Positions 27,577 to 64,000 of a DNA stretch of 64,000 nucleotides are shown in pieces. Each line of letters opens with the position of its first letter. The stretch's first letter is position 1. The position numbers and the translations under genes were made by a program. Location: positions 28,148,001-28,212,000 of the forward strand of contig CM022671.1 of NCBI GenBank assembly GCA_012295275.1. The letters run 5' to 3'. The notes beneath the pieces were generated by a model. The model made no database searches. It had not been told where the DNA came from and saw only the letters and a program-made list of their open reading frames with translations. The DNA comes from Chrysomallon squamiferum. Lineage: Eukaryota; Animalia; Mollusca.

Positions 27577-27610
<34 letters not shown>

Positions 27611-28311
27611 TCAGATGGATATTCCTTCATTTAAAAAATCGCGCCGAACAAAAATAAAAATGATAAAAAGAGGTAGCCTCTTTATTGTTATCTGCGGATA
27701 TTAGTTTTTTTTTAACTAGACATTTAAATAAATCGTACTCATATTGCTGATGACATCGAGTAATCCGAGTTCCATTGTCGTACGATTCCATTTTAGTCTT
27801 GTTTATAACAGGCGAGTTGATCACTGAGAGCTGGAATCCTATAGCCACCACAATCAGAGACAGTACAACACCTGAAAACATATACATATACATACATATA
27901 TACAGACACCCAGACACATACACACACATACACACACGTGTATATAGTATAATCGAACATTCCATTATAATCATTTTTAAAACAGCGATTTTACAGGCAG
28001 ATTCTTTTCTTCCCTCTTCTCTGTGACTTGCTTCGTCTGTCTTTGCATAATTCACTGTAGCATATAATACTAAACATTTACATTATTCAGTTTTGTAGTG
28101 TATTTCTTTATATAATGTTTTTTCAAATATATGTTATAAGCATAAATATCCTAATATGATTCGTTTATTTGGATTTCATCCTCTAAATGTATTTTTGTTT
28201 TCGGATAAGTACTGGATGAAGTTCGTAATAATTATAACAAATGCTTTCGTCCTGAACTAGTATGTAATTAAATTGCATTCGATAAGTCATACTGTTTAGA
28301 AAACTTATTCT

Positions 28312-28347
<36 letters not shown>

Positions 28348-29017
28348 ACTTCGAGGCGAGTCGAAACCAAAAAAGGACCAATCAGAACGTCCAAGACATT
28401 ATAATTGAAAGTTATTATTAGGATTTCTGGTTTCTGCGCACGTGACCACATTTATAAGAAGCATGCCGACATTCTTACCTCCGATACTAAAACAGAGAGA
28501 CAGCTTCCTTCCGAATCGTTCGACAGCCCATAGACCAAAAAATGTGGCCAGAACCAAAACGGCATTAGGAATACACACCAACCAAATGGCATGTCTCACA
28601 GGAAATCCCGCCATTTTTAATATGGTACCGCTGTAGTAACTGTAAGAGATTAATAATAATAATAAGAAGAAGAAGAATAGGAAGAAGAAGAAGAAGCAGA
28701 AGAAGAAAATAAAACAGTTGTAAAGCAGTTGAATATATTTTAAGTTACTGATTCTTTTCTACGTACAGTAAACAAAACTCAAAGTGTATTTTAGAAAAAA
28801 AAAAGAAATATAACATGGGAAAACATACACGTATTAATTAATAGAACTTGAAAAATATTAATTACTACAATAGTCCTTTTTTTTTTTCTTTTCGGATTTA
28901 TATTGGTGAAGCTTGTAAACTCACTGAGCTCGAATAAATACAGTTAGCTAACGTAACCCAAAACCGTTCTAGCGTTAGTTTTTCCAAACGTCTTATAATT
29001 GCATTTCTCATGTTCAG

Positions 29018-29083
<66 letters not shown>

Positions 29084-29548
29084 AATAAATAATGATTTAA
29101 AATATATTATGTTTATTCTAAATTAGAGACAAACAAATAATAATGTCAATAGACTTACAAAGACTTATGTAATCTAACTCAGATAAATATAATACTAATT
29201 TTCCCTTGACTTGCAAATTATAATCCTTATATTGTTTACTATGCTATATTTAGGATAGCTAATACTCACATAATGCTATTGATTCCACTGAACTGTGCAA
29301 AAACACACAACCCGCATCCTATGAACAGTGCTTTCCTGACGTAAGCTGTCGTAAATATTTGTGTTACCACTCCACTCTTTGTTTGTCGTTCTTCAGTGTT
29401 AGAAATAAAATAAAGTTTATTTATTTATTTATTTATTTTGTTGTTGTTATTTTTGTTTTTGTTGTTATTGCTGGAGTTGTTATGCATACAAACACGTTCA
29501 CCACACAGATGACACCCTCATATTTAAAACATTACGTCTGTCGTAAAA

Positions 29549-29579
<31 letters not shown>

Positions 29580-32500: not shown

Positions 32501-32621
32501 TGAAATAAGGCTCGATTAACAGCATTGAACCGGAGACGATGCCGGTGTCGTAGCCAAATAGCAGACCTCCTAACGTGGCACATCCTGCCAGTATATAAAC
32601 AAACGTACGTTGAACGGCCAT
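25863..32621 (-). CDS. SLC2A13: Proton myo-inositol cotransporter-like sugar porter (MFS), divergent paralog A
   Basis: Nine exons, approx. 32285-32621, 31828-31986, 30078-30271, 29270-29390, 28479-28639, 27738-27871, 27244-27468, 26552-26705, 25863-26050. Motifs GGLLFGYDTG, DLLGRKK, PVYIAESSP, PESPRWL, ERFGRK, the HMIT-type Cys-rich loop (CESCIKDKGCGFCY...YCP), PMPWTINAEIYPLWARG and LPETK. The exon 3 donor is ambiguous (30078 or 30042). Confidence 0.9.
29020..29092. repeat. (TAA)n/(TAAA)n microsatellite
   Basis: Direct reading of the sequence. Confidence 0.9.
30619..31430. mobile_element. Non-autonomous DNA transposon (MITE, hAT-like termini) in sugar-porter A intron 2
   Basis: Perfect 11-bp terminal inverted repeats CAGGGCCGGCG (30619-30629) / CGCCGGCCCTG (31420-31430), 812 bp. 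Flanks TATATACA / TATATATT match 6 of 8, a possible decayed 8-bp target duplication. No transposase ORF. Confidence 0.75.
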
Positions 32622-33990
32622 TTCAAAGTTTCTAAAGTCTGTTCTGCTGCAGTAGTAAAATTCTGAGACCAACAATAGTAATAACTGCTATCAGTTTTAA
32701 TTGTGGATCAGTTTTCAGTCCTCCAGTGACCCGGCTTGGCCAGCGTCTTAATTAGACGTGCTCAAATGTGTGCAGTGTGTGAGAACTTGCAACACAGTAC
32801 GACGAAGTCAGCTGAGGTTATTATACTGACCGACTTCGAAGTAGAGGTGGGTCGAGACAGATACTTTACCTCAGACCGAGGAACACTGGGATCGTATCCA
32901 GCTTGGTCCTCATACCCAGAAATAATTAACAGTATTAGTATATTACTCAGTGATAGTTAAGAATTGTAGCTGAGTAAGGTATATTTTGTTACGCACAACA
33001 AAGAATTGTACAAATGTGAGACGCGAGTATCAGATCCTAAAAAAACATCCAACATTTTAAAAATAAGTGAATCTGTGTCGCTAATCGGGGCTAAGTTGAA
33101 TCTCTGATCATAGCATAATCATATACATTTTATTATTGCCGTATATATAACTTTTTATCCTGTGATAACTGCGAAATGCAGTATAATATGATTTATTTTC
33201 CATTGATAATTATTAATTATAACGTAATGTATTGCGGATAAATATTTTTTGATATTCATTAATTTCTGTCATAAGCAAGACCTTTTCTATGCATCAGCTG
33301 GACTCTTCTGATATGCATTGTGTATGTGCACGTGTGTGTATGTTCGTGTGTGTATATGTATGTATGTATGGATGGATGAACATATGCATTTATGTAGGTA
33401 TTGTATATATATATACGTTTGTATGGATGTAATTGTATGTACGTATATATATAAAATATATATATATATATGGATGGATGCATGTATGTATGTATGTATG
33501 AATGTATATACGCCCGTTTATTACATCAACGAAATTGTATAGATTATATGATATGTGCTATATTTGTGTTTGAAGCATTTTAGATGTTTTAAAAATAAAA
33601 CGTAAATGCAAAATAATAAATGGACATATTAAAAGATTTATCACATTAATACATTTTCAGAATATTTTATTTTACATAACAATTTATAAAAGAACTAGAA
33701 TAAAATATCTGTAAATATAATTATAACAATTAACTTATTATTCCAAAAGAGCAACATATAAAGATAAAAACATCATATATATACACACACACACACATAC
33801 ACAAGCAATCACGCACACTCAAACCAAAGACACAGACCTTGTGTACACACAGAAATAACGTTTAAATCTTGATTATATTCATGATCTAGTATTTTATTAA
33901 CAACGACCGTAAAATTACCACAAGTGTATGAATTCTTTGTTCATGTTATTTATGTTACTATTGATCTAATGTGATATACCCAACGCTTTA

Positions 33991-34857
33991 TCACATTTTA
34001 GTCACTTCCACAGATTTAGTATAATCGTTTTCACTTGGAATTTCTATTTCGTATACCCCTATGTTTTCCTGCAGTTGTTCCCGCTCTTTCTTTGACATAA
34101 ACAGTAATTGCACTTCCTCCAGAGTTTTGTTCTTAGTCTCTGGCAAGAAAATTATTGTAAAGATCATCCCAGCGAAACAGATGCTTGCAAATAACCAAAA
34201 TGTACCTGGAATTGTAATGAAAGAAATTAATATCCACTGTTTGCAAAGATTAAGTAACGGAAAAATACTACTCAGTTTATGTGATACAGGATGATACAGA
34301 GATTTAAAAAAAAGCTGATGTATTGTTTGTTTAAAACAGATTTATAATTTTTGTCGTTATTTTGCTTTGATTAAGTCCATAATTAAATTCTGAATAGAAC
34401 TGACTGTACTGTTATTAACTTCTGAGCTTTGTTAATAAAGATTCAGAAAGGTAATTAGTGCATTTTCTTTTTTTGTTTTTTCTTTTCTTAAATTAAACAA
34501 TATTCTATTATTTATTTTATTTTAAATTAAACAATATTCTATTACTTTTTTCTTTTCTTTTTGTTTAAACTAAATATAATAATCATTTCTTTTTTTTTTT
34601 CCATATATGGGCTATATATTTCATCAGCCCGTTAAGTATACATAATATGTGTGTGAAAGTGTAATATTTACCATATGTCGTAATTGTTTCAGTTAGTGTC
34701 AGAAAGGTGAAGGATACGACAAGATTGAAAATCCAGTTGACGGCGGTTGTCATAGCAATACATGTACTTCGTGCCCACAGAGGGAATATTTCAGAGTTTA
34801 TTGTCCATGGCATTGGCCCCAGACCTTGAATAAAGTAACGATAATCAGTAATTGTAA

Positions 34858-34906
<49 letters not shown>

Positions 34907-35886
34907 TGCTACTACATATTAAATACAACATCTATTTTTAACAAATGAATTAGAATAAGATTATTAACGAACAGAAATAAAAATTATAAGATATAATTTA
35001 ATAAAAAAATAAAGAAGCATACAATTAAATTTCAGCAACATCAAACTAATTAATGTCGTAAAACTAATCACATAGTAATTTAAAGAATAGTAACAAACAA
35101 AACAAGTTAAGAATATGTACCTGGTGCAAACGAAACAACGAACATGGCCAGCCCCAAAACAGCCATCCACGAATAGTCTGTGGGGCAGTAACCTTGTGCC
35201 CAGTGCATTCCGGAAGAGGAAACACCGACAGCGTTACAGCGGCCATATTCAGCTCTTTCCTCTTTCTTATCCATTTGAGCTGGTAAGCACGTTCCGTTGG
35301 CGATGTCATCGTAGCAAAATCCACACCGACTGTCTCTGATGCAGTCGTTGCAGATGCTGAAAACAGTTACATAAATGTTTAGGTTTTCAAAGAATAAACT
35401 AAACATTTGTTGAAAAATAACATCATGTGCGTTTTAAAAATACAATTTTATTTCAAAACTTTTCACCGCCAATAAGCTATTACCATTATTTTGCTAATAT
35501 CTGATGTTCCTAAATATGTGAAGATATAAAGAAATAATTGCATGTGTATCTGATTCATCCAGATAAATTTTATGAACTAAGTTAATTATTTTTGTGGATG
35601 TTTTCATTTTAATTTTTTGGCCAGTGTTTAGTTTTTGTTTGTATTTGATTCATTTATTAATTGTGAACTTCATTTAAAATGTTATTAGATTAACTTTATT
35701 TAATCATTTAAATAAATGAAAGGATAAATAAATACTGACGAATATTTGACGTAGCAGCTGTCAGTGATGACTGTGTCGTTTCCATCGTACGTTTCTGTGA
35801 TGTTGGTGTTGATTTGTGGCGAATTGTTTGCTGATAACTGAAATCCGATCGCCAAAATGCCAAGGGAAATAACCACTCCTACGGAG

Positions 35887-35941
<55 letters not shown>

Positions 35942-37633
35942 GAAATTTTAAAGTGATTTGAAACTGAATTACCTTTCAAATACATATTGAATATTGCAGT
36001 TTTATATTTATTATTATTACTTAAAATTATTATTATTAATTAATTTCAATTTACATTAATATCCATTGCATTAATACTTGAAAACAATGCAGAATTTTAC
36101 TTACTGAAAGGACCTTTTACAGAAAATAGAATATCCTAAAATAATTATAGTATATTAATCATTTGCTTTATGTGGTAAACTATTAAACGAGTTCAAACAT
36201 CTATTTAGATGTTAGGACAGAGATGGGATTTTACCTGCAAAACTAATCACAATCAATAATTTACGACCAAATCTCTCCACAGCCCAAAGACCGATGAAAG
36301 TCGACAAGAAGTTTATTGTGTCAGGAACCATCACCAACCAAATTGCATATCTAACCGGAAATCCCGCCATTTTTAGAATAGATGCGCTGTAATATCTGCA
36401 AAAGTCAGTACTTTCCGAAAAGTTCTAATAATTACGGTTATAATTATCACTAAAAACAATGCCAAAACAATTATTTTTCGATGACATAATCTTGTGTTCT
36501 TATCAGATTCAAAAAACCATGTTAGATCTAACATTTAATTGTACGGCCTTTTGACTAGTACGATATAAAACCAAATATACTAATTAAAGTTACAGGTAAC
36601 TCATTGCAAACGCGTTGATCTACATTAAATGGTATACTGTAATGTGGAATACGTCAAGGTTATTTTGATACGCAAATACTGGTTGTTAATCGACACTGAA
36701 CTTTATGATTGTCGCGATGTAAGTGCCTAAAGTGCTCATTTTCACGTCTAGGGGGTGAGTAAATACAAATTGTAACAATAATTTATTATAAATTCATTGG
36801 ATAAATAGCAATCAACAAGTGTGCAGGTTCAGTTATTTATTTATTTACAAACATTTTGTATTTTGTAATAATATGCAAGAAATAAAAGCAGTTAAATTAT
36901 TTAAAATACGGAATCAGCTGAATCCTAATTAAAGACGGAATCTGTCGGAGAGAATCTAATTACGTTGATATGCCGTTATTTATATTAAACAAGTTATGTT
37001 ATTTATATTAAACAAATGCGCCATTGGTAACACAGAAAACACTGCATAATGTCGGTACCAAAAACAATGTAGAAAAGTATCTTGCCAAACGCTTATCGAA
37101 GCAAGGTCAAAGTTTCAATGTTCTCTCTCGAAACCTCCGTGTTCATCAAAGGAACCACCTGGTTCAGTAGATGCCTGCTTATCTTTGCTTCTTCTCAGAC
37201 CCCGATGTCCGTATATATTACATTCTTGCGGACGTTAATGAAAACCATGGAATGAAAGAATGAAAAGACGGAAAATTTCAAAACTATGTTTCTTTCTCAC
37301 ACAAAAAAAAAACCTCCATATTTTGGACGATAATTTACTTAATTTAGAAATTTAAAAACTACCTTAAAGAGTTCGTCATCGCGTACTTTCCTGTAAAAAG
37401 ATGTTACTGATGGTCAAACAGAACTTTAATTATCTGCAATTATCAATAATATATGCAACAGAAATATATCTACTGAAACACAGTTTCATAGATATGCGGG
37501 TTTATGTCTTCGTCGCAAAGGTAACTAATTACGATTATTTTCAAAGCTGAATTCGAATTTATTGTCCGCAAATTCGTCCTTTATTTAATTGGATTTGATA
37601 CCATGAGCGACTTATTCAAGCACACTATTCATT

Positions 37634-37677
<44 letters not shown>

Positions 37678-40190
37678 TGTATGTATATATATATTTATAC
37701 ACATACATATTTGCTGATTCTTATAAGAGTTAATAGATCTGTTTTTCTTACTTACATGACAGTGTTTATTCCACAGAGCTGCTGGAAAAGCTGAAGTCCA
37801 GCTCCAACAAAGAGAGCTTTCATCACGTATGGAGTACTACACACTTTACCCAGAACGAAACCTAAAAAAACAGATTTTAAAAATACATTTTCACAAGTCA
37901 AGAATATACGCTTACAAACACGAAGTCTGGATTAGTTGTTTTCGTTTTTATTTATTGAATTGACATTTTTACCATGTTTGGACTGTTTATCTTGATCGAT
38001 GCCTTTCTGTATATCTTCAAGTTCTTTGCTGACGTCATCATGTCCTCTAATTCTCACAAGTACAGCACGAGCATCTGTACCTCGTCCTTTGCTCAGAAGC
38101 CAGCGCGGACTTTCAGGAAGAAAGAAGAATCCGAAGAATTGTACCATCCCAGGCAAACCGGCTAATCCAAGCATATACCTGTAAAAAAAAAAAAAAAAAA
38201 AAAAAAACACAATACAAACACGTTTAATATAATTATTCTGTAAGAATGAAACATTTAAAGGGAAAACAAAAAGAGTTAAACAGTGTATAATATTAATATT
38301 ACAATCTAGAAAATAAGTATTTTTAAATTATAAGTACTAATGGTAGACTATATTAAGCAGTAACAGATAAACAATTTCCATCTAGCTGTTTATAGTGTAG
38401 CATAAGCGGATAAAAAAAAACCCACAAAAAACCTACAAAATTCACGTGTTGCTATCACTGTGATAAATCTAATTTTAAAATGAAACGATTTGCATTACAT
38501 AGAAAAGAAGAAGAACACGAAGAAAAATAACAGCCAAAACAAAACAAAACAAAAATTCGATTGCCAAAAGAATATAAAGGCAAATCAAGGGGCACAAATG
38601 TGTCCCAGCCCAATGGATCCGGGTACACAGAATCACTGCATTACCTCCAGCCTGTGTCCTTTATCTCGCTGAACGCACCAGCAATCAACGCGGAAAGGAT
38701 GATGCCTATTGTTATAAACAACTGGTTCAAGGTCACCAGACGACCTCTGATAGGAGTTGGGGCGACTTCAGCCACATACACGGGAACAGTCATGGAAGCA
38801 AATCCTGAAAATAAAATATTTTGAGTCTAAATTTAACACTTCTAAGATAGTTAATGACTTAATGATAAATTTAATTCTTAATTTATGATCTACGGTTTAT
38901 TGCTGTTGAAGTATACTAGATTTAACATTCTAACATTTTAATTTTGACGTACTATAATCAACGATGGAAATGGGTTTTAGGAATCAGAACAGGGTTTAAA
39001 AAGTTCATGAGGCCCAGGCTGGGAAAGACTGGACTGTTAGACATTGTAAGTCCCTCCGTGAAAATCTTTTTGTAATCTGAAAATGCAATTTGTTATTGCG
39101 GGCTGATAATAGAAAAAGAATTAACTAATCTATAACGTGCCCTTATCTAAAGACTGTCGTAACAGTTTCCAATCAGGAAGTTCGTATACACATTTATTAG
39201 CTCACTGAACACAAAATGTGTTTTTGATTTCCATTAAGATGCCTTTATATGTTGTTTAAAAGAAATGAGTGAAATATTGCAAGAATGACTTTTTATTTCC
39301 TAGACAAAGATTAGCTAATAAACGTGTTTGACTCTGCACTAGTACAGAAATAGGACATAAACCGGAAGCTAAAAACTAGGAGAGCGCCCACCCCCCGTTT
39401 CCATCAATGACTGTTTTTCTTGTTAAACTGTCTGACGGTGTGCTTACCTGACCTTCTCAGAATAATCAAGTAATCTCCCACAGTTATATCAGTTTTTCAT
39501 CGAAAAATATTGTAATTTGTCAAAAAAAGTGTTTTAATAAATCAAGCAACCCTATAAGATTTGCCGTTTCCGCCAATAACTTGTCTGTATTCGATTTTGA
39601 GTGACAGTGCTTCAAAGCATTGTATTTTTATTAGACAGCGAACAGTAAAATTATAGATCACTGCTAAGGGTTTATTCAAAGTACTTTGGGCAAAAATGGA
39701 ACATAACATGTTATTACATCGGAAAGGACCTCGAGGTAGCAATCTAGTCAAAAGAGTGGACTAGATGGTGTATTGCGGAACTGTAATCTAGACAAACTGT
39801 ATCAAATGCAGTTTTTTTTTTTATAAAGATGTTTTGGTCACTTTTACATGATAAAGAGATTTAAGTATACGCTTTAATTCTTTCGGCGAATTTAATTATA
39901 TAATTCGCAGATTATCGTTTTTATTTAATATCTATTTATAAAATAAGCTTCATGCTTTATAAAATATAAACAAGTATTAATATTTTATTATTAAACTATT
40001 ATTATTTTCTTCTTTTTTCCATACATGTTGTCTTACAGTAGTTTTTATTTGTTTTTATTTTAAATATATCACTGTATCAATAAAAACTTACCTTCAATAA
40101 ATATTTTCAAACATTATTTTATTAAAAGATTTGAAAATTTCTACTTAAAGTAATATTGAAAAACAATAAAACAAAATAAAAAACAGTAAA

Positions 40191-40228
<38 letters not shown>

Positions 40229-40886
40229 TAATAATAATAATAACAAAAAAATAAATAAAAATAATAAAAAAATAATAAAATAATAAATAAATAGTAGTAA
40301 CAGCAGCAGTACTAATAGTAGTACTACTACTACTAATAATAATAATAACAGCAATAAAAATAATAATAAATAAAACAAGCAAATAAAAATTAAATGAATG
40401 AATGAATTAATAAAGTCAACACATTTATTTTCTGAAATCTGTCATTTCCAATAACAGTTCTCTGTACTTACCTATACCTATACCGACAACAATTCTTCCT
40501 ACAAGCAGAATTTCCTTGGATGGCGACGCTCCCATTAAAGCAGCTCCTCCTGTAAAAACAATACTAGCAAACATGATTGTTTTCTTTCGTCCAAAGAAAT
40601 CTGTACTGAAGCCAGCTACAAGAGAAAACAATGCAGCCGCACCAATAGTGCCACTGACGATGATCTCTGTCCATATTGTATTGAGGTTGAAGTACGGTTT
40701 TATCAACAGCATTGCTCCTGAGACTATTCCCGTGTCGTATCCGAACAGCAGGCCACCCAGAGTAGCGAAACATGACAGAAAATACACAAATTTCGTATTT
40801 TCGCATTTTGGAGAAGCTGCACTGTCAGTATCGGCCGTTATGTCGACACTGGTTCCGTTTTTACCTTGGTGTTTTTTCTCATCCAT
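33991..40886 (-). CDS. SLC2A13: Proton myo-inositol cotransporter-like sugar porter (MFS), canonical paralog B
   Basis: Nine exons, approx. 40471-40886, 38645-38803, 37973-38178, 37755-37861, 36234-36395, 35740-35879, 35121-35356, 34672-34824, 33991-34205, with the same intron positions as paralog A. Motifs GGLLFGYDTGIVSG, PESPRWL, LQLFQQLCGINTVIYYS, Cys-rich loop, PMPWTINSEIFPLWARS, NWIFN and LPETK. Ends ...VEVTKM*. Confidence 0.93.
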
Positions 40887-42013
40887 TTCTGGTTCCTTTG
40901 CACTTCGCTATCATTCGTGAATGTTCTGTAACATTCTATAAATAAATTTTAAAAAAACGAGGAAAAGAATTTTTTTTTAAAAAGAAAGGAAATTGAAAAA
41001 AATAAGGAATCAGACAGATGTTCTCAGAAACAGTTTTTGCAAGACATGATTTATCACCGGGAACTCAGCACGCCATGGTGATTACACAAAAGATCCACTG
41101 AACATCATGTTGATCAAACCGACGTCATCTGTGATAAAACCGCTGCAGTCTTACGTGCTTATTTCGAGAGCTAGATTCTCTGTATCTGGTAAGATACGGC
41201 AGGAGTGGCTGGATGACCAAAGGTGCCATCGTCGTCAGGTAACGATGCTGAGTTGGCTGTTCGCATTATTTGCGTAGACGATAATGCGTGGTTGTTGCTC
41301 AGAGAGAAATGAATTACAAGTGTGCGGAGATATATCGGCCAGAATGATTATACGTTTTACCTTCGTTCTTGCTTGCTTTCTCTTGGTATATGTGTGCCGA
41401 AGACTGATATTGAAAATCATCCATTGCATAATATGAATATAATGCGAGTAAATATCTCAGTGTGAATATGTAGTGATGAGAGAGAAAAAGGGAGACAGTG
41501 ATTGTGTTTATGTGTGCGTTTCAAATACGAAAGAAAACTTTATATTTTCATTAATATCATTTTATTCTATAATTTGATTAAGTTTTTAATGTGTGAATGT
41601 GAAAAATAATAATAATAAAATTAAAGAATATAATATATGCCATTATACAACGATAATACTTTTATGAGAAATATTAAAAGTAACTTTTTTTTATTTATTT
41701 CACAAAAATTGTGCTTTTTTCATTTTAAAAACTATTTGCTTTGAGAGTATTTAATTCTGAAAAAAAAAATAAAAAAAATACAACAACCCACACAAATCAA
41801 ATTGTTATCCATTATGAAAGTTTTCGGTGATATAGCGTTCAGCATGGTTCAGCGCAATAAGCAACACGAGATAATGAATTCCAGCTTACCAAGCAGCTCA
41901 CACATTTTATAATCTGTGTAAACGTCAAAGAGATGGAGATTTTAATTCAGTGCTGGGAGGGGTTTCCTGAAGCTATGCAATAGTTCAATCTAGCGTTTAT
42001 AATATGTTGTCGA

Positions 42014-50396: not shown

Positions 50397-50580
50397 TATC
50401 AAAATGCGAAAAAAAAATTTACAGAATAAAAAATCCTAAAGTATAGTTTCTAAACAATTTGCATGTAGTAACCTGTAAACACGAATAGACTGGCCACTGC
50501 ATAAATATTTCGCTTTGGACTACACGCGGTTTTATTTTTGTTTTATCATGTGATTTTTTATCACATCACATGCATTTATT
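50397..50580. promoter_or_regulatory. Very short bidirectional promoter ZMYND10 / fucosidase
   Basis: Only 184 bp separate the two start codons. Forkhead motif TGTAAACA at 50474-50481. Confidence 0.65.
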
Positions 50581-51337
50581 ATGGCTGCTTTAGTCAAATA
50601 TTGTTTTTTCATTTGTTTCTTAGCTTTATTCGTGGACTGCAAAAAATATAAACCGAACTGGCCATCGATAGATTCTAGGCCGCTTCCTTCTTGGTACGAT
50701 GAAGCAAAATTAGGCATTTTCATTCACTGGGGAGTATTTTCAGTGCCAAGTTATTCGTCAGAATGGTTTTGGTGGGGTTGGCAAGGCCAACATTTGCCGG
50801 CAATCGTCAGTTTTATGGAACAAAACTACAGACCTGATTTCACATATGCCGATTTTGCGGCACAGTTTACAGCAGAATTTTACGATCCTGTAGAATGGGC
50901 AGAACTTTTTGCGGGATCGGGAGCAGAGTGTGTACATTAAAAATATATAATTATATTGCATCAAACTAAATGTACATTAATTCATGTAATTTATCTCAGT
51001 ACATAACTCAGTAACTGCATTTTACGTTATTATAATCAAATTTTTATTTATATCTTTACGTAGCATTCACAATTATTCTAAAACATCAAAGATTAATTTC
51101 TATTATCTTTGTTAAAAATAATTTCATTTATTTTATTCTTCATGTCATATTCCACCTTCAGGATTGTTGTATAATACAGTTTTTTTTCCCCCTGCTAGAT
51201 ACATTGTATTTGTCAGCAAACATCATGAAGGCTTTTGTAACTGGGCCACTAATGTATCATTCAACTGGAATTCTGTGGATTATGGTCCAAAAAGAGATAT
51301 TGTTGGTTTGTTAACAATTTAATATTTTTTAGTTTTG

Positions 51338-51378
<41 letters not shown>

Positions 51379-51964
51379 TTTTTCGTTATTATTTTTTTAA
51401 ATTTAAATTTTATTATTTAAATTCATAAATACTATTTTGATTTATTGATTATTATGATTTTTAGAAACTATTTTATATATTATTGTTGACTCTTCAAAAT
51501 ATCTTATATGTGTATATATGTGAGTGTGTGTGTGCAGCAATAATTATTTGTAGACTGTGTCTATCTAATAATTTAAAGTTAAGTTATATATATTATATTT
51601 ATTAAAATATATATTTCTATTTAACAGGTGAACTGGCAGATGCTGTTCGATCCAAAACCAAAATGCATTTTGGCTTGTACCATTCTTTGTTTGAATGGTT
51701 CCACCCACTTTATTTGCAGGACAAGGCTAACAACTTCACTACAAACAACTTTGTCACAGTCAGTTTAAAAATAATTTATTTAGAGACAGTTGTCAATTAT
51801 TATCATTTGTTTTACTGAACATTAAAACAGTTTAGACAAAATTATCAGTTTGTTTCATTAAATAAAGCTGTTTTATAATTCTCTTCCAAATAACATTCTC
51901 GCATAAGCCAAGTCACTATAGTTCTTTAAAAAATATAGTTAAACTGTCTTTAAAAAAATAAAAA

Positions 51965-52004
<40 letters not shown>

Positions 52005-54399
52005 TGAGTTACAGTCAGTGATATGTTTTTCGGAATATTTGTAAAATGATGACATTGAATTCAATTATTATTTCACTTAACATTATTTTAAATTTATAAT
52101 ACATTTTTCACAAGTCCTGACAGAAAGGGGAAATGAATAATTTCATTAACTTTTAACAAAATATTAATGTATTTTCAGGATAAAACTATGCCTGAGTTAA
52201 AAGAGCTGGTCACTAAATACAAACCTGAAATCATTTGGTCAGATGGAGACTGGGAAGCTCCTGATATTTACTGGCAGTCCACAGAATTTCTTGCCTGGCT
52301 TTACAATGACAGGTACCAGCACTTGTATTCACTTATTTTTGTATACAAGAATAGATTTGATCTTTTATCAGTCTGTTGTTGTGGTGGCCAAAGTGTCAGT
52401 CATTAGTCTGTTTTGTTTTAGTTTGGCATCACAGTTAATATAAGCTCTACAGATAAATTGATGTATCTTTCACCTCTCAAACATATGAAATTTATTGTAT
52501 TTCGCACTTAGGTTAAACAACTGTGGCCACATTTAATAAAAAATAACCAGTTAGTACCTGCTTATCAAGTTATATTCCAGACACGGTTCTATAAAGTGTC
52601 TTGTATTACAAAATTTGTAATTTGTTTGTTGATTTTTTTTTTTCATTTTTTTTGTTGTTCTTTTTTTCATCTTTTTAATATTTAGATCTTACAGCTTGTG
52701 GATGTTACTTGTATACATTTTTTGAAATGTTGAGATGAGAGTTTTATTGTTTTCAGTCCAGTGAAAGACACTGTTGTCACAAATGACAGATGGGGCATTG
52801 GTGCTTCTTGTCACCATGGTGGATTCTATACATGCAGCGACAGGTTTAATCCAGGTAAGACAATTAAATAGTATTGTTTTGTTCGTGTTCATTCATTCTT
52901 TTTCTTCTTGAAACAAAATTAATGTTTTGTTGCTTTTTTTTAATGTTTGTTTTTATTTTTCCTGTACAAGGATATTTGCATGTTAATACAAGAAAATAGC
53001 TTTTTAACCATCCTGCAAAACTGAGTGAATTTTTTAACCTATAGTTAGACTTCATAGCTAAGGTGCAGTATGTCTCAGATTCAGTTCTTGTTAGTATGTA
53101 TACAGAGTTTTCATCATACCATTCTAAGCTGTTGCTATTTGAAAGCTATATAAATACAGTTATGTGAGCAAAGAGATTTTGTTTTGCAGGAACCCTTCAA
53201 AAGCACAAGTTTGAGAATGCTATGACCATTGACCGTTATTCGTGGGGTTACAGGAGAGATGCCAGGCTTTCAGATTTTATGTCAATGGAAGAACTCATTG
53301 GCACATTTGTTGAGACTGTCAGGTAAAAGAAATGACTACTCATATAAAAAGTCATTATTGGATCAGCAATTAGCATTAATATTTTAGAAAGCATAGAATC
53401 TATATTTTTATAAGAATGTTTTATATAGTGTGGAAAATACATTTAAAATCTTCCAAATTGGCAAATTGTGAAGTAAACTGATCCTAATTTTGGAAATGTT
53501 TTTTTTTTAATGTTTAAAGTCTTACATTTTATGTATCTATTTATTTTCACTTGTTTTTTTTTTATATGTTATATTTTTTAATTTTATTTAATAAACAAAT
53601 ATAAATAAAGTTTTGTAAAAAACATTTTGCTTTTTTTAAAAAAAAATTCATATTTCCAAGAAAGTAAAATTTACTATTTTATATAGTTGTGGAGGAAACA
53701 TGCTGATGAATGTTGGACCAACCAAAGATGGAATGATTATTCCAATATTTCAAGAACGGCTGAAAGGCATGGGTCGTTGGTTATATGTGAATGGAGAAGC
53801 TATTTATAAAACTAGACCATGGGCTTACCAAAATGACACTGTCACAAAGAACGTTTGGTATGCTACAAAACAATAATTATTAACTCTGGCTAATACATTT
53901 TACACTCTTGAAATTTACTTCTTACGTGGCTCAAATTAGTGATATTTTTAGATTATCTCATCAGTAAACATCCTCTTTTAAATTATGTAATTATAAAAGT
54001 TACAAATCACGTGATGGAAAACCAACAGAATTTATCTTAACTCATTATTTGCTTCTTGACAGAAGATGGTATATCTATAAAAGCTATTTCCGATAATAAA
54101 TCAATCCAGCAATATTTTTAAATGAAGTGGTTATTTTGATTTTTTTTTTTTTTAGGTACACTTCAAAGGAAAACAATGTTTATGCTATTGTTCTGTCGTG
54201 GCCATCAGATACCCTTTTTCTTGGAGCACCGACACCTTCTGTCTCGACAACTGTTAATCTTCTTGGGTATAAAGGAAGTTTTGACTGGAAGAAAGGTGCA
54301 ACTAGGGGAATGCAAATAACCATCCCACCAATATCCATCAATGATATGCCTTGTGAATGGGCTTGGGTTTTCAAACTCACTGAATTAACATACGATTAA
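50581..54399 (+). CDS. FUCA: Alpha-L-fucosidase (GH29), spliced
   Basis: Exons approx. 50581-50927, 51199-51305, 51628-51758, 52179-52312, 52757-52854, 53190-53322, 53687-53837, 54156-54399. Signal peptide followed by [40 protein letters not shown], catalytic nucleophile motif IWSDGDW, VTNDRWG, SWGYRR and [10 protein letters not shown]. Confidence 0.96.
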
Positions 54400-56487
54400 T
54401 ACAGACATTTCAGTTATCTTGGGATTAACAACTTAATATTTAAAAATAATTAGTAATTATTAAAATCCATACCCACAGATGAGTATCAGATATTGTTTAT
54501 ATTAGTGAAGACAGATTAAAGATAATGATTTCTTTCTTTATATCAAGCAAAATATAAATCGCCATTAAAAAAAAAATGGATACGTTTCTAAATTAATCAC
54601 ATATTTATAAGTTATTGCAGAATTGATTAACTGAATATTTTGACCTAAGTGTTATTTTTAACATAGATGTATAACAAATATTATTAAGCTAATTTACAAG
54701 ATCGTGTTTGAAGTGAATCCAAATTGGCATCATTTATACTAAACTCTTTTATGGACACCTACTTGGTACCAGGTTCATACCTTTTAAATTCTTTGGAATA
54801 GAAATTTCCAGTTTGAAATTGATTAATTTTGGTGTTTTAGAAGTTTTATTGTGTATATTCTGTTAATAAAATAATGTTTGCATATAAATACAAAGTGACT
54901 AGATATTGGATATTGTCTGCTTTATTTTTAAGCTTGGAGAATTCTGTGATGTTTGCCATTTGATGTGCATTAATATCACTACCATACACTTACAACAAAC
55001 AATATTTTTTTAAACAGTTTATTTTCATTGTTGTATATTACCTTCATGAATGTGACTGAAGGATGTGACGCACATTATGTGATAGTTATGAATATTTTAA
55101 TTTTGTGATTTTTAAAACAGACTGAAAACGTCATCTTGATGTGAAAACAGTATAAATATTAAAGAGAAATTTGGTGGTGCTTTTTCTGTTGCAAAACTGA
55201 GTAGAACATTGAAAAAGTTTCTTTATTAATTATGTTAGCATTTATTTCTGATTATTCAGCAGGAATGTGAACCAGTTCAAGGTTAGTTAAACAGCACCTA
55301 TTTATTTCACCAGTTGAAACTAAAATACAGAGTATGTTTTTTGTTATAATTTTGTAATTTGGTTCACATGTCAAAAACATCTAGTTTTTATTTTGTGATA
55401 TACCAACAGTTTAAAAACTATTTTGATATTTTAATACTTTTTTTTTTAATTCATTTTAAAGAGAACATTAGATGTTACGTGGCATTATCTGGAATTTTGC
55501 ATCAAATGTTAATCAGTATACATCATAGAAGTACAGTCATAATTTACTATCTGTTTAATCAATTTTCATAATCAGTTAAATGGATAATTGCATTTTAATA
55601 ATATTTTTTCATTTTTTTCATTTGTGTTTGATATTTAAAACATATTTTAATAATTTTGAGATGACACAGAAATTGTACATTCTGTTTTAGAAAGTGTTAG
55701 ATTTCAATATTTTTATTCCAATTACTCAACCACAGTCAGTTGTTTATAGCTTGTTTTGTGGGGTTTTTAAATTATTATTATTATTATTATTATCTAATAC
55801 AATATACAGTGTAAAAAAAATTCAATTGTATGTCTACCTTATTAGTAGCTACAGAAGACAGCTTGATGAGCTAAAATGTTTCTGTTAATACTAATTAGAA
55901 AATTCAAATAAAGTATATATACAGTCTTAAAATATTTAATAATAATCCATTCTTGTTTTGATTAATGCTGTGGATAAAATACATTCCACCTAACAAATAA
56001 AATTTTATTTAGTTATTCAAATTAATTTTTGTTGTTGTAAAATTAATATGAAATGTTAATTTTTTTTTAATTTTTATTTTAATAAATTTTGTTCAGTTTA
56101 TCAAGTGTTGTGGCTTTTATTTTCTTGACCACATCTATTTTGATTTAATCAGAAATATTACAAATATGCTTTGTTTCAGATATAACCTAGCTTTATGTAT
56201 AATTCAAATGATGTTAAGAATAATTTACACAAATTACAGGTATTTAATAGATTTCAAATAATGTAATTTCTGAACTCTTAAAACTTACCATTAATGCAGA
56301 ATTGCCGTTACATTAAATTATCGGAAACTAATTAAGTAATTTATCCATTTGTCAAGAACTGAAGTAAAGTATGTTTACTGACTTGTGGCCTGTTCGTATG
56401 AAGATAATATACTTGTCAAGGGAGATAACTAACAACAGATCGCTAGATAGGTCCAAAGTTCAGTAGCACTAGCAGTCTGGGGTAAAC

Positions 56488-59400
56488 ATGTTGAAGGGAC
56501 TATCGTTAGCAAAGAACCAGGTTTACAGTTTTATTGAGGTAGTATTCCGCAAATTATAAGAGGGAAAAATTAAGATAATATTTATTTACGATGTATTTCA
56601 AAATAACATCGATGCATACCAGTATGATTATCATGATCATAATCATGCTGTACCAATCGTCCAATAGCAATGGCCAGTACTTTCTGCACAGCTCTTTACA
56701 TTGTGTTTTGACTATTTTTCATTTTTATCTGAAAAAATGTTCACCATTTTGTTATATTTACCTTTGTTTAACACCCAGTAAGCGATATATTTTTTGTGCC
56801 GGGGGTGTTGTTAAATATTAATTCATTCATAATTTCATTCATTGAATGACCAATGGCAGTGGACGAATGGTCCGAAGATTTTACACTCAGTTATTTCTAC
56901 TCAAGAGTCAATACTGAATCAGTGAATGATGTGAATTCATTGTTCAGATACCACATTCTGCGGCAATGGCTTCTAATTGTATCATAATTATTCATTTTAA
57001 AATGTAATGGGTTGATACTAAAGTTTTAAGGAGTTAGATTATTCTTTTTTTAAATATAATTTTGTTCATTATAATTTTTAAATGTGAATTAGTGATGTTT
57101 AGAGCATATGATACAGTTAATGTTACAACAATAATAGACTGATATTGATATAGATAAATGAAAACAAATGTTTTTATTTCAAATGCATAGCTTTTTTTTC
57201 TTATACATTTAAATATTATCAGTGAATCTTTCTGTCAAAATAATTTATACTTTTTAGGAATTAAAAAATGACAATACAAATTACAATTCACATTTGTGAA
57301 TCCAGCACATTATATCAGTTTCAATTTTTAAATGCAACTGTAAATTAAAAATGAAATTTTTACTAAATATATATCTGTGCATGTATGTGTGTGTGTGTGC
57401 ATGTGTGTGTATAATTTGAAGGTGGCATTTGACTGATGTATTAAGTGAACAAAGAATTATGCATTACTTTAATTTTATTTTTTTCCAGCCATTATCAAGT
57501 GTTCGTCTTTACAGGTAAGCATGAATAGTTATTCAAGTTGTTTAGTTAATTTTTTATTTTTTGTGCTAGAACATAGGCTGATATTATCTGCCAGTTTTGT
57601 TCCATATTATGATTAAAATTCACAAGATTATCTCTGTTCTGTTCACAGACTACATAAATTTCTTAACTTAATTTTCAATTTATGAGTATTTTCTGCTAAT
57701 TATGAATAGGCCTAAATATATTTGGTTTTATTGAATTTCAAATCTCAAGCTTTCAAGATTTTGAAATATTTTGAATTGTTTTCTTAAGTGAATAATTTGA
57801 CACTAACACATAATTCAGTTATGCATCAGATAATTATTGAAATATTACCCAAAATATTATTTTTATAACATATAAGTTTTTCTCTTTACAGTACATCTTT
57901 TGATGAAAGGGAATACATTCACAAAAGTATTGTTCCAACATATCACTTTCAAAAAAGTTTACCTAGACTACCAATTCCTAAACTTGAGAAAACATGTGAG
58001 AGATACCTAAAAGCTCAGCTTCCTCTTCTGACACCTGGTGAATACACAAATACTGAAAATATTGTGAAATCTTTTCTACAAGGAGATGGACCAAGTAAGT
58101 TTGTGGACATTTTAGTATCAGCACAACATACACGTGCACTAAAGAGCAGCCCACATCTGCTCAGCTAGTTTTTGCCTACTAATATCTCATCTTTTTAAGA
58201 ACTTTATTGTTTCTGAAATCATGGGAAAACTGTTGAACTGCTGTTTAACTAAATTCTTCTGAACTTATTGTTTATTAATATTATACAACCTCTATAACAA
58301 TGTAATGAACAATTTAATAACTTGGAAATATCTGAATATAACATTTTAATTTGTTATATTTACTTTAATTATTTACCCTTTGCATTGTCATATTTATGAG
58401 GTTATCTATAACACTTATTAGAACTACGTGTTGAAAAAACAATAACAACAAAACAATGAACATATAAAATGTGGAATAAATGTGCCATAATAATTTTCAT
58501 TTATAAATATGTTTGAGTTTCAGTTAAAATATCTGTATTTCACTTAACATATCTGAAATTTATCTTTCAGCACTTCATGAGGAACTTGTTGCCCAAGATA
58601 AAAGAAACAAACACACTAACTATGTTTCAGGTAAGTTTCACTAGAACAGAAAAGGTGAATTTTTGAAAGATTATACATTATACATGAGGTTATCTAGAAT
58701 AAATACATGTACCAGATAATTTACCTGCCAAGTATAGTTTTCGAGATGACCCATATTTCTTGATTTATGCTTAAAATATGAAAAGAGAATGAAATTTTAT
58801 TTTACTGATGGATTTCTGAAAGCCAGATAAAGAACTGGTGTCTGTATTAGTATTATTCACATTACAAATGTGTGAAAAAAACTGTAATTAAAATTAAGAC
58901 TACATCTGTGACAACATTATCAAATAATTTTAAAACAATGATTATGTTTATTATTTAAAAATCAATAAATAAAAGCAATGGAATCTTTTATCTATTTTTT
59001 TCTTTTCTACAGACTTGTGGTTTGATATGTACTTGAAGGATAGATCTCCTGTTGTACTGACTCACAACCCATTCATGGTATTTACTGATGACCCAAAACC
59101 TGAATACAACAATCAGGTACATAATAAGATAATTGTAAATAAATAAAACATAAAAGTAATCACTTTTTGTTATATATAAAACTTGAAAACAAAATTATTT
59201 TCAGTGTTTTGATACTTGTATTTATAACGACGTAAATATTTTGGGGAAAAATGTTTGTTAGCTTTTTCAGATATTTTCTGAGTCTCTTTCTTTTCAAAGG
59301 TTATTTTCTATTTATTAATGTTTTAATTTTTTTTATTTTTTATAGCTTTTGCGTGCTGCTAATATGGTTGTGTCATCTGCAAGGTTTATGAAAACATTAG

Positions 59401-62372
59401 AAGCAGAAATCCTGGAACCAGAAATTTTTCATTTAAATCCTTCTAACAGTGATAATGAGAAATTCAGAAAGTTTACTAAGTATGTTCTTGATAATTATCA
59501 TCTGACACAGTCGTTACAATAATCAAATTAAAAAGTGCTAGTTCATATCGTCTGATAATTTGTTTCTAGATTAATTCCATTTTATTTTTCATATTATAAA
59601 TTTTTGTATTTTATGTTCCGAAAGCTGTTGAGACTAATGAAACTAGAATTTTAATTGTTTAAAATCTGTATATAGTGAAGTACTTTAAAAATAATTTATA
59701 TATTTAATCATTTATAATCATACATGTTTAAAATATTTAAGATTTAATTTAAATTAAGAAGCATTTGATAGGAATAAAAATATGTATCATTTATATAATT
59801 ATATATAGTTTTAATTACATATTAATTAATTCTGACTCCTCAAAATGCAGATGTTACTTTATTTTCCAGAAAAAGTCTGTTTTAAAATGAATTAAAGCTT
59901 TGAAAACAAATTTAAGGTTCAGTTATCGTATCATTTAATTACAATTCTAAGTTATTATATCATTTAATTATAATGCAAACTGTATTTTTCCGAGATCTAA
60001 TTTGTTTATTATTAGGTTTCTTCCAGAATCTTTATCTTGGTACGGAGCTTACTGGTACAAGGCGTTTCCTTTAGACATGAGTCAGTACAAAAGATTATTC
60101 AAATCCACTCGCATACCTAGGTGATTCTAGATGATTCTAGATTTCTTAATTAAAGCAAAGTTGTCTCAGGTTTTAAGAGGAACACTTCTACTATTGTCAC
60201 AGATAGAAAACAAGGAATTATTTATTAGTTGTTGAAAGAATAGATTATAAAGTTTAATTGAGAAGTTAATACTACAAAGTTAGCACTAGTATGGCATGCA
60301 AATGTATATTTTTATAATAAAATTTACATTGTTAGTAATATTTGCTAATAGACAGTTTTACATTATGTCAACACTGCTAGTGATATTTATAAAGGGACAG
60401 TTTTATCATAAAGACAAAATAACTAGTGTGATGTTCAAATAGACAGTTTTATCATAAATTGTTTTATTACAGGAAAGGCAAAGATGAGTTGTATACTGAC
60501 AAGTCTAGTCGACATCTTGTTGTGTTGAGGAAAGGAAACTTTTACATCTTTGATGTTCTTGATTCTAATGGTATTTTTCTCAATTTCTTCTTCATCTGTT
60601 TTACAAAAAGGAAGGTGCTTTTCTTTAAGCATTTGTTTTTGTCTAGTTATTTTTTACTGTTAGAGCCAGCTCTTAGTTTTTACGTAAAATAATTTTTAGT
60701 AATTTGACTGATCCATCCCTGTTTATAAACAAAAATAACAAACATAAACTGATGTAAATCTTATACTTGTATTTCAATTCTGAATTTTGTCTTGAGATCA
60801 TTTTTAATTATCTCTAATAGTAACAGTAAATTTGGATTCAGAAAATATACTTTTATGATTTAGAAACAAATAACTATTTTCTTAAATATTAGTCTGTAAC
60901 TTAATGATTTATTATATTTCTATTTTCACTTTTGTCAGGCAATGTACATACAGCTGAAGAAATAATGTCCCACATAAAATATATTCTTGAGGACATAACA
61001 GCTGAACCGGACTGTCCAGTTGGTGCTTTGACCACTGAGAACAGAGATGTGTGGGCAGCAGCAAGAGAAAAGCTCATAAAATCAGGTTAAAATATTTTAT
61101 TTATTATAGAGTTAACATAGAAGTGTATTTTCTTTGATTTATATTAACAGCCAGACATGAAAGTTAAAAAGCATAAAGTTTTTCAAATGCTTCAGTTTGA
61201 TTTGTTTGTACATTCATTTTGTGTCAAAACATTCCATCAAAAGTTAGTCATTATAATTTCAGAATGAACTGAAATATTTTCAGAATTCAGAAGAATTAAA
61301 AATGATTATGAATCTATAATTTCTTTTCTTCAAATACAAATACAAATTAAAAATACTATTTATGATACAGAATTATAATTTTTTATATATATTTTTTTTT
61401 TCAGGGAATGAAGATGCACTAAAGAAGATAGATGGAGCTCTGTTTGTTTTGGCTTTAGATGATAAAGACATGACAGATCCAAATGATGTTTCGAGAACAT
61501 TCCTTCATGGAGATGGTGTGAACAGGTCAGCCTTTCTTTTTCTTTAGATACTGCAGTTCTCTGCAGAAGTGATTTTTGAATCTCTGTTACAGTTTGTATT
61601 GCGATGGACAATTTTAATATTTTATTTAGGTTTTATATATATATATAAAGAAGATTGCCAAAAAACAACAAGTAAATATTAATGCATACAAATATATATA
61701 TATATTTATATTTATTTGTGCATTTAAAATAGGGAAGTGTTCACACACTTGTCTAGATTAAACAACATCCATTGTGCAGTTCAGTATTAGTATTAGTATT
61801 AGTATTATTTTTTAAAATTATTTTAAACAGGTGGTTTGACAAATCTTTCCAGCTGCTGATGTCAAACTGTGGGAAAGCTTGTGTGAATTTTGAACACTCC
61901 TGGGGTGATGGTGTTGCTGTTCTGAGATATTTTCGAGAGGTTTATAAAGACTCAACACAAAATCCACAGGTTCATCCTTCGACCAAACCAGCTAATGTAA
62001 ATTCGGCAGAGAAAGTGCAGCGAATTGGTATGAATGGCAGTCCTCTTTGTTGTTTTACTTTTTTCTTTTAAAGTTGATTTATAAGGAAAAATGAATTTAT
62101 CAAAATTATTCTTTTCAGTTATTTTATGGGTTTCTTTAAATGGAATTTCATATCTTTTTTTGGCCTTTAATTTTAATTTTTAATTATTTTTTTCTTGATT
62201 AGAATTCAAACTTGATGAAGCTTCAAAAGAAGCTATTAGACAGGCAAAGACAAAGTTTGAGAAAAAGACTGCTAGTGTTGATCTGCATCATCTGGAATAC
62301 AATACATTTACCAAGACAACCTGCAAAAAACAGAGACTCAGCCCAGACTCAGTTTTACAGTTAGCTATACAG
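56488..62372 (+). CDS. CPT2: Carnitine O-palmitoyltransferase 2, mitochondrial (5' part; continues beyond the window)
   Basis: Exons approx. 56488-56538, 57489-57514 (26 nt), 57892-58094, 58571-58630, 59013-59116, 59346-59479, 60016-60120, 60472-60570, 60939-61085, 61405-61525, 61831-62027, 62203-62372. Motifs [50 protein letters not shown], catalytic [14 protein letters not shown] and [11 protein letters not shown]. No stop codon in the window. Confidence 0.95.
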
Positions 62373-62681
62373 GTAAACTCTTCATCTTATACAATAATTT
62401 TTTTTTTACATACTTGATTTTACAATCACTTATATGTGTACTACATTTTATAAACACACACAGAGTAATCAATTCCTTTTACACTCACTATATTGGTAAA
62501 CTCTTCATCATTTATGTAATAAAAAAATTATTAACATACTTGATTTTACAATTAATTATATGTCTACTGTATTATATATAGAATACACTCACTTGTAAAT
62601 TGGCTGTACAAATAAATAACGTCTTGTGTAAAGAAATTGTGATCGATTTTTAACCTCTGCCTAAATGTAGTTTGAATTCTT

Positions 62682-62821
62682 TGTGCAGTGTATGGTGTGT
62701 TATCAGCTCGACAATAGTGAGTTTACTGTTGGGTTATTAAGTGCACCTAGATAAAACTGGGAGATGTGCCGACAAATAACTGTGAAGAACAGGGAATCTG
62801 TGCGATTCATCTCCCACAAAA
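62682..62821 (+). ncRNA. Box H/ACA guide RNA (probable scaRNA, U2 snRNA pseudouridylation), copy 1
   Basis: Hairpin 1 closed by GTGCA 62683-62687 / TGCAC 62742-62746, H box AGATAA 62749-62754, hairpin 2 closed by TGGGAGATG 62758-62766 / CATCTCCCA 62808-62816, and ACA 62816-62818. UGAG and GAAG lie in the apical regions. Both pockets are complementary to U2 snRNA. Confidence 0.85.
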
Positions 62822-63206
62822 TACTAATTTTACTTTGTACAATACAAGAAAATAGAGATGTACCTTTAGTAATAGAAACAAATAACCTTAATACATCCTG
62901 TTATCAATATTATTAAGTTGTTTTAATTTAATAAAGTATGATAATAAAATAGATTTCTCACTTGTAAGTTAGTTATACAGGTAAATCCTTCATCATTATT
63001 CATGTAATAAAGAATATTTATCTACTCAATTTTACAATTAAATATGTCTATCACATACACTTTTACTGTATAAAGAAATTGTATCTTTATACAGTAATCA
63101 AATACTTTTACACTCACTTGTAAGTTGGCTATGATAGTAAATCATTTCTTGTATAAAGAAATTTTGATAGATTTTAAACCTCTGCCTAAATGTAGTTTGA
63201 ATTTTT

Positions 63207-63346
63207 TGTGCAGTGTATGGTGTGTTATCAGCTTGACAATAGTGAGTTTACTGTTGGGTTATTAAGTGCACCTAGATAAAACTGGGAGATGTGCCGACAA
63301 ATAACTGTGAAGAACAGGGAATCTGTGCGATTCATCTCCCACAAAA
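63207..63346 (+). ncRNA. Box H/ACA guide RNA (probable scaRNA), copy 2
   Basis: Identical to copy 1 except AGCTCGAC>AGCTTGAC (C-G to U-G pair, structure-compatible). ACA at 63341-63343. Confidence 0.85.
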
Positions 63347-63365
63347 TACTTATTTTACTTTCTAC

Positions 63366-63399
<34 letters not shown>

Positions 63400-63818
63400 G
63401 AAAATAAAGATGTACCTTTAGTAACAGAAACAAATAACCTTAATACATCTTTCTATCAACATTATACTTATGTTTTAGTTTAATAAAGTATGACAATAAA
63501 ATAAATTCTTCGTTGATCATGAAGCCTTAATACTTCCTTTTATCCACATTATTATTTTGTTTTTGTTTAATAAAGTACGACAATGAAATAAATTTCTCAC
63601 TTGTAAGTTAGTTATACAGTAAACGATTCATCATTATTTATGTTATAAAAAAATATTTATATACTCAGTTTTACAGTTACATATGTCTACCACATTTTAT
63701 TCACAGTAATCAAATACTTTTACACTCACTTGTAAGTTGGCTATACATATAAATAATTTCTTGTATAAAGAAACTGTGATAGAATTTAAACCTTTGCAAA
63801 CCTGAAGTTTGAAGTCTT

Positions 63819-63958
63819 TGTGCAGTGTTTGGTGTGTTATCAGCTTGACAATAGTGAGTTTACTGTTGGGTTATTAAGTGCACCTAGATAAAACTGGGAG
63901 ATGTGCCGACAAATAACTGTGAAGAACAGGGAATCTGTGCGATTCATCTCCCACAAAA
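63819..63958 (+). ncRNA. Box H/ACA guide RNA (probable scaRNA), copy 3
   Basis: Same as copy 2 plus one change (GTGTATGG>GTGTTTGG) outside the predicted guide pairing. ACA at 63953-63955. Confidence 0.85.
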
Positions 63959-64000
63959 TACTTATTTTACTTTCTACCATACATATAGAAGAAAATAAAG

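Follow-up and report, generated by a model that had tools for sequence, protein, structure and literature searches.

Vertebrate U2 snRNA is pseudouridylated at U6, U7 and U60, and Psi7 is among the modifications near its 5' end that contribute to efficient splicing. H/ACA RNAs are bound by dyskerin, NOP10, NHP2 and GAR1, the distance from pocket to box is 14 to 16 nt, and the CAB box (consensus ugAG) directs localization to Cajal bodies. The closest described system is SCARNA14, or U100 (Rfam RF00582). Deletion of the single-copy human SCARNA14 led to the loss of U2 Psi7 and spared Psi6 (PMC8763049), and Table 1 of PMC7960923 names U100 as the Psi7 guide and gives human Psi6 and Psi60 without a reported guide. 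Psi60 is found in human and rodent and is absent in Xenopus, but an artificial scaRNA installs it on endogenous Xenopus U2, which a snoRNA backbone cannot do (PMC8522698); the same paper reports that a perfectly complementary guide may still fail to modify its target in vivo. Passages of two further papers map Psi60 without naming a guide (PMC8336889; bioRxiv 10.1101/2025.11.30.691380). SNORA11 is the guide for Psi58 of U2, and position 6 is served by a separate guide in Xenopus (PMC6984369). SCARNA14 or U100 goes unmentioned in the main text of PMC6984369, PMC8522698 and PMC3884663, whose supplements may list SCARNA14 targets, of Xenopus or other species, and the relevant passages of PMC5473140, PMC5855946 and PMC12716993 hold nothing on a Psi60 guide or an invertebrate SCARNA14. 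In the open-access literature, we found neither a natural Psi60 guide nor an invertebrate SCARNA14 in print; supplements, subscription papers and snoRNA databases could differ. As to arrangement, an animal intron mostly holds a single snoRNA. Introns with two can give rise to sno-lncRNAs, a class to which the H/ACA-ended SLERT belongs and in which two or more snoRNAs per intron can protect the sequence that lies between (PMC11028025).

The locus described here lies in the window, that is, the whole 64-kb stretch of DNA that was analysed. We assign a probability of about 0.68 to the reading that it consists of tandem CPT2-intron copies of a divergent SCARNA14 (U100), with a 3' pocket predicted to guide modification of U7 and a gained 5' pocket predicted to guide modification of U60. 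The features are collected in the table.

Table. Features of the scaRNA array and its host gene in the window
Feature	Position	Strand	Remarks
Last CPT2 exon in window	62203..62372	+	Host intron starts at 62373; RNA contigs X6 and X7 exit the exon at 62372
scaRNA copy 1, conserved core	62682..62821	+	46.0 bits, model built without window sequences
Pocket 1 left arm, copy 1	62701..62706	+	Predicted to pair with U2 62-66 (61-66 if 62706 is used)
CAB-box-like UGAG, hairpin 1 loop	62718..62721	+	From the fold; AG aligns with AG of Rfam SCARNA14 loop
Pocket 1 right arm, copy 1	62735..62742	+	Predicted to pair with U2 52-59; starts 14 nt before H box
H box AGAUAA	62749..62754	+	First and third A invariant in 16/16 aligned sequences
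Pocket 2 left arm, copy 1	62768..62772	+	Predicted to pair with U2 9-13; identical to Rfam SCARNA14 consensus
CAB-box-like GAAG, hairpin 2 loop	62784..62787	+	From the fold and Rfam alignment
Pocket 2 right side, copy 1	62801..62806	+	62802-62806 predicted to pair with U2 1-5; 62801 faces U6
ACA box, copy 1	62816..62818	+	From position and Rfam alignment
Decayed CPT2 exon-end copy, head of repeat unit 2	62957..62990	+	Intact donor-like site, junction 62980/62981
scaRNA copy 2	63207..63346	+	46.4 bits, same window-free model from relatives
Decayed exon-end copy, head of repeat unit 3	63596..63629	+	One base lost before GT
scaRNA copy 3	63819..63958	+	46.3 bits, window-free model from relatives

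The preliminary description of this DNA had claimed three nearly identical 140-nt copies with diverged flanks, and this was borne out. Pairwise differences among the copies were 1, 2 and 1 nt (over 145 nt), whereas in 110 nt of flank there were 10 to 14 substitutions and as many as 4 gaps; divergence was about 10 to 13% in the flanks on both sides and below 1.5% in the cores. Variable columns in the three-way alignment numbered 1 of 128 in the core and 28 of 130 in the flanks (Fisher p = 2.5e-8), with the second copy difference, at 62692, counted as flank under the core definition used for this test. Both arms of pocket 1 were identical across the three copies. No further copy of the core was detectable in the 64-kb window by BLAST or with a covariance model, the next window match reaching 10 bits. 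The contig depth of the common core compared to the unique spacer was 255.9:88.7 (2.9) for X1 and 15.3:6.0 (2.6) for X2, and the variant common to copies 2 and 3 had 2.0 and 1.75 times the depth; contig depth is, by the tool's own caution, not copy number, and the ratios fit three copies and not a dispersed repeat. The earlier count of at least three copies thus stands, with the per-contig depths pointing to three and not more. The stretch 61800-64000 was present, in whole or in part, in 9 of 11 listed sequencing runs, and five runs of three studies held 0.79 to 0.93 of its words, one of these runs being possibly the source. The locus is very probably a real, selected H/ACA scaRNA gene array. 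Its copies presumably go back to a unit of some 0.5 to 0.6 kb, starting in the upstream exon end, that was duplicated in tandem. A (TA)15 microsatellite at 63367-63396 lies behind copy 2 only and was the source of weak miRNA matches in the Rfam scan.

The upstream exons of the host match Pfam PF00755 (CPT2-type). For one exon, the best of 760 matches was CPT2 of the gastropod Gigantopelta aegis (77%), and the top named matches were mostly molluscs, which makes a gastropod the likely source. RNA contigs of two runs leave the last exon at its 3' end and continue in sequence outside the window; since they jump past the window, the three copies lie in one intron. All three are on the plus strand in a single CPT2 intron, in keeping with the sense orientation noted before. 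The end of the exon, with its donor, has been copied repeatedly together with the repeat units, each of which starts with a decayed copy of it (62349-62390, 62477-62514, 62588-62621, 62957-62990, 63113-63146, 63596-63629 and 63725-63758), and donor-like sites in 62370-64000 comprised only the true donor and 62980/62981, a junction that sits right behind an AG, as in a recursive splice site. An RNA contig crosses the spacer unspliced, which makes efficient splicing at the duplicated donor slightly less likely. In the contigs of the RNA libraries the core is joined to intron flanks (copy 1 to the spacer, and the upstream flank to copy 2). Both RNA runs came from one study and contigs cannot show RNA ends; contigs that cross the borders between copy and flank fit a long RNA and equally pre-mRNA or DNA. 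The RNA runs contained 0.41 and 0.34 of the words of 61800-64000 and, apart from a short cross-match, gave no cover at 62381-62620, where the DNA runs also had a hole.

No other credible snoRNA was found in CPT2 introns by an Rfam e-value scan of 54400-62400, which gave five weak matches. A GC-richer, hairpin-like stretch at 58105-58155, just behind a CPT2 donor, was spotted by eye and had no Rfam match. Just upstream of CPT2, on the same strand, lies a gene (50554-54399) whose exons read like those of an alpha-L-fucosidase, as we take it. Exons of at least three similar genes, presumably of the sugar-transporter family, were found in tandem on the minus strand at 26500-40950.

The architecture of each copy is hairpin-H-hairpin-ACA with AG in both apical loops (UGAG and GAAG), as in CAB boxes. 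The H box in the hinge has the form ANANNA, the ACA is located three bases before the presumed 3' end, and the right arms start 14 nt before the boxes; boxes and arms were found in the sequence where the preliminary description had placed them. The sense strand folded into two hairpins, as expected from that description, with z scores of -3.1, -2.0 and -2.4 for the three copies; the reverse strand of copy 1 gave a z score of -2.0. Hairpin 2 alone was significant (z = -3.3), and hairpin 1 alone was not more stable than shuffles (z = -1.25). Forcing the arms open cost about 10 kcal/mol, and the upper stem of hairpin 2 then failed to form at its base in the predicted fold, a weakness partly common to the coral copies described below (pair 122-147). 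Further features of the H/ACA class are the bipartite pockets 14 to 16 nt from the box around a uridine (in the U2 of other eukaryotes) and compensatory change in the 3' hairpin (among relatives selected with bias).

A scan of the window at the Rfam gathering threshold gave 0 matches. In an e-value scan, the SCARNA14 model (RF00582) aligned over 1-136 of its 136 positions to each copy with 24.4, 23.7 and 23.7 bits, below the cut-off of 40 bits in all three cases. The covariance scan proposed earlier therefore gave a full-length alignment, but at 24 bits, and we file the copies as a divergent homologue or variant of RF00582 and not as a curated member. Apart from the full-length alignment, they share with SCARNA14 the H and ACA boxes and the intronic location; both arms of the 3' pocket are identical to the RF00582 consensus, and AG stands at matching places in both loops. 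Metagenome contigs were scanned for the pocket-2 arms plus ACA, which gave at least 119 loci; among the 119 matches listed, 16 were relatives and the other 103 were dropped as chance. The pocket-2 arms are invariant among the relatives by construction of the search pattern. One relative, L227, is SCARNA14 itself (81.5 bits). Among the 15 of non-vertebrate type in these matches, 6 reached 23 to 31 bits with the Rfam model. Six relatives form one group, whose member L170 lies in an ERCC5 intron and whose named matches are all stony corals. The other nine form a second group (L163, L183, L192, L226, L239, L248, L254, L263 and L264), with L163 in a NUP43 intron; many of its members have G as the last base of the H box (ANANNG), and in the group as a whole the 5' hairpin is extended by about 20 nt. 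Pfam gave no name for the short exons of the relatives. None of the 16 loci lay next to CPT2 when compared to 4 CPT2 proteins, among the metagenome matches listed. In L239 (663-890), the intact gene is directly followed by two broken tandem copies of the 3' hairpin (33 and 31.7 bits); local duplication of a SCARNA14-type RNA thus recurs.

When the three window copies and 13 relatives were aligned, 8 of 12 pairs of the 3' hairpin changed on both sides, and 88% of the cells paired compared to 35 to 55% in slid controls. The relatives, which represent three lineages, had first been ranked by lower-stem pairing, so that the covariation counts as support and carries no p value. A model built from the 13 relatives with the window excluded scored the copies with 46 bits (E ~4e-9), whereas 111 non-relative loci with the same 19 pattern bases (103 metagenomic and 8 viral) scored at most 23.3; therefore, the likeness extends beyond the bases of the pocket. 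In viral contigs the pocket-2 patterns had 120+ and 8 matches, taken as chance, of which only the 8 were scored, with at most 12.5 bits. In view of the full-length Rfam alignment and the 46-bit score of the window-free model, the question of a relationship to SCARNA14, which the preliminary description had left undecided, can be answered in the affirmative, and a real SCARNA14-type RNA gene is very probable.

The U2 segments 53-66 and 1-13 had been named in the preliminary description as those of human U2. The target search worked with fetched U2 genes: the four pocket arms were reverse-complemented, combined into one pattern and run on genome_contigs. It fetched 32 loci, and 19 of the 20 given to Rfam were full-length U2 (161 to 192 bits), the remaining one (L012) being a chance match. 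The 5' sequence of U2 was present in 31 of the 32, in 11 distinct forms. These loci are eukaryotic contigs within prokaryote assemblies and were fetched by an exact-match pattern, so that they are no gauge of site conservation. Eukaryotic U2 genes are present in ten prokaryote assemblies (L001-L032), partly as tandem arrays and partly with 5S rRNA linked to them (L009, L013, L014, L019 and L022); these are host contigs in metagenome-assembled genomes. The same U2 pattern had 0 matches in viral contigs. The complementarity of both pockets to U2 that had been claimed was thus upheld against U2 genes of other eukaryotes.

In a search restricted to U2, pocket 1 paired best at U60 in all six U2 sequences tested, at a distance of 14 nt from the H box and with 12 Watson-Crick pairs if position 53 is C and 11 if it is U. 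The pairing with U2 53-66 proposed earlier holds overall; its G-U pair at 62741 becomes G-C in the 6 of 11 distinct U2 forms that have C53. In a loose search, 7 of 4000 dinucleotide shuffles of U2 reached 12 pairs, and in a strict, structure-anchored search in which U60 was allowed to stand alone, 9 of 20000 mononucleotide shuffles reached 13, which puts the chance of such a match per U2 length at p ~0.0005 to 0.002. A U60 pocket was present in 0 of 13 relatives tested, which gave 7 to 9 pairs at scattered sites in the looser search compared to 12 to 13 here. Their 5' pockets vary freely. No further molluscan copy turned up among the matches listed, and in the 13 relatives compared there was no covariation in support of the Psi60 pocket. 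From these alignments, the 5' pocket for U60 is probably a lineage-specific gain.

Pocket 2 forms 5 + 5 pairs with U2 1-5 and 9-13. In its best all-Watson-Crick register U6 is the first unpaired base, at 14 nt, and the Psi7 register lies 15 nt from the ACA, within the 14-to-16 rule. Because deletion of human SCARNA14 removes Psi7 and not Psi6, Psi7 is the likelier product, although by its length the 9-nt spacer to the ACA would also allow the Psi6 register. Of the double guide for Psi60 and Psi6/7 put forward earlier, the Psi60 pocket is retained as beyond chance, with the qualification that 13 of 13 relatives are without it, and Psi6/7 is narrowed to Psi7 as the more likely. We consider it probable that the 3' pocket makes Psi7 and, with less confidence though still on the favourable side, that the 5' pocket makes Psi60; that the latter is both active and previously undescribed has a little under an even chance.

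The differences from SCARNA14 are, besides the score of 24 bits compared to the cut-off of 40, the U60 pocket in the 5' hairpin, which L227 and 12 relatives of non-vertebrate type are without, the spacer to the ACA of 9 nt (8 nt in L227 and the corals), the host gene CPT2 instead of ERCC5 (corals) or NUP43, and a triplicated gene within one intron, compared to a single gene copy in human (PMC8763049). The engineered SCARNA4>U2-Psi60 guide (Deryusheva et al. 2021, PMC8522698) likewise combines a scaRNA backbone with a U60 pocket, but it is artificial, whereas here a natural pocket sits in a SCARNA14 backbone; the two were compared by description. Since the engineered scaRNA reaches U60, the site is reachable, and the CAB-like loops of the window copies fit this. 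SNORA11 targets the same stem-loop region of U2, two bases away, but there was no Rfam SNORA11 match up to E = 10. A Psi58 register was rejected because its distance to the H box, 12 nt, falls short of the range that the rule allows. With the sno-lncRNAs, the array shares the presence of at least two snoRNAs in one intron; it differs in that any such long RNA would carry the same scaRNA at both ends and once more in between.

In the mechanism that we propose, the scaRNA would be cotranscribed with the CPT2 pre-mRNA and trimmed out of the spliced intron, would assemble with the four H/ACA proteins, and would be targeted to Cajal bodies via its AG loops and WDR79. Dyskerin would then be offered U7 of U2, in the arrangement that the human case implies (15 nt from the ACA and with 62801 opposite U6), together with U60; the three-base register would allow Psi6. 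With three copies in one intron, maturation would require endonucleolytic release, splicing at the duplicated donor, or a long RNA that has copy 1 at one end and copy 3 at the other. Unusual processing of the copies, either as an H/ACA-capped RNA or by release through the duplicated donor, is doubtful in our view. Still less should be staked on the full combination, namely, the first natural Psi60 pocket, in a family as old as the common ancestor of corals and bilaterians, plus an H/ACA-capped three-guide RNA of ~1.28 kb (62682-63958) or release via 62980/62981.

If the RNA is a SCARNA14 homologue that guides modification of the 5' end of U2 only, its 5' pocket would be inactive or coincidental. 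The 13 of 13 relatives that have no U60 pocket and whose 5' pockets drift would agree with this, as would the weakness of hairpin 1, the finding that a complementary guide need not act on endogenous RNA (PMC8522698), and the loose null, which gives ~0.07 such matches when scaled to ~8 kb of rRNA plus snRNA. However, the match falls on the same RNA as that of the other pocket, at a uridine that is modified in mammals and at the canonical 14 nt, the p value per U2 length is low, and both arms are unchanged in three copies. We consider this reading unlikely. A somewhat lower probability goes to a 3' pocket that places Psi6 (three unpaired bases, 14 nt) and not Psi7, or that serves U6 snRNA, reportedly an early proposal for the target of U100. 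The best all-Watson-Crick register and the spacer, one nucleotide longer than in L227 and the corals, would be in line with Psi6, and three-base pockets can work (PMC3884663). Against it stand the human knockout, which excludes Psi6, the 15 nt of the Psi7 register, inside the rule, and the separate guide that Xenopus has for U2 position 6 (PMC6984369).

The identity of the copies might also stem from recent duplication or gene conversion, with one or two copies functional and the rest passengers. That animals mostly have one snoRNA per intron (PMC11028025) and that L239 has broken tandem copies of the 3' hairpin would favour this, but conversion tracts would have to end at the RNA ends twice to leave such different divergence in cores and flanks, and the only change within hairpin 1 replaces C-G by U-G in the fold of copy 1; we hold it to be as improbable as the Psi6 reading. 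Near-identical repeats at the edge of the window in a microsatellite-rich genome could, in principle, be a transposon fragment or an assembly artefact. This is largely refuted by the array being unique in the window, with a depth ratio of ~3, by its presence in five runs of three studies (one maybe the source) and by the relatives being intronic in corals and another lineage, and we regard it as extremely improbable. The reading as tandem copies of a divergent SCARNA14 with a gained U60 pocket is the one that we prefer.

The relatives extend SCARNA14 to corals and other non-vertebrate lineages, in three different host genes and below the Rfam cut-off; therefore, the Psi7 guide appears to be old and mobile. 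The three conserved copies per intron offer a clean case for how intronic H/ACA clusters mature. A natural Psi60 guide, if true, predicts that U60 is modified in this animal and would suggest that modification of U60 was gained more than once.
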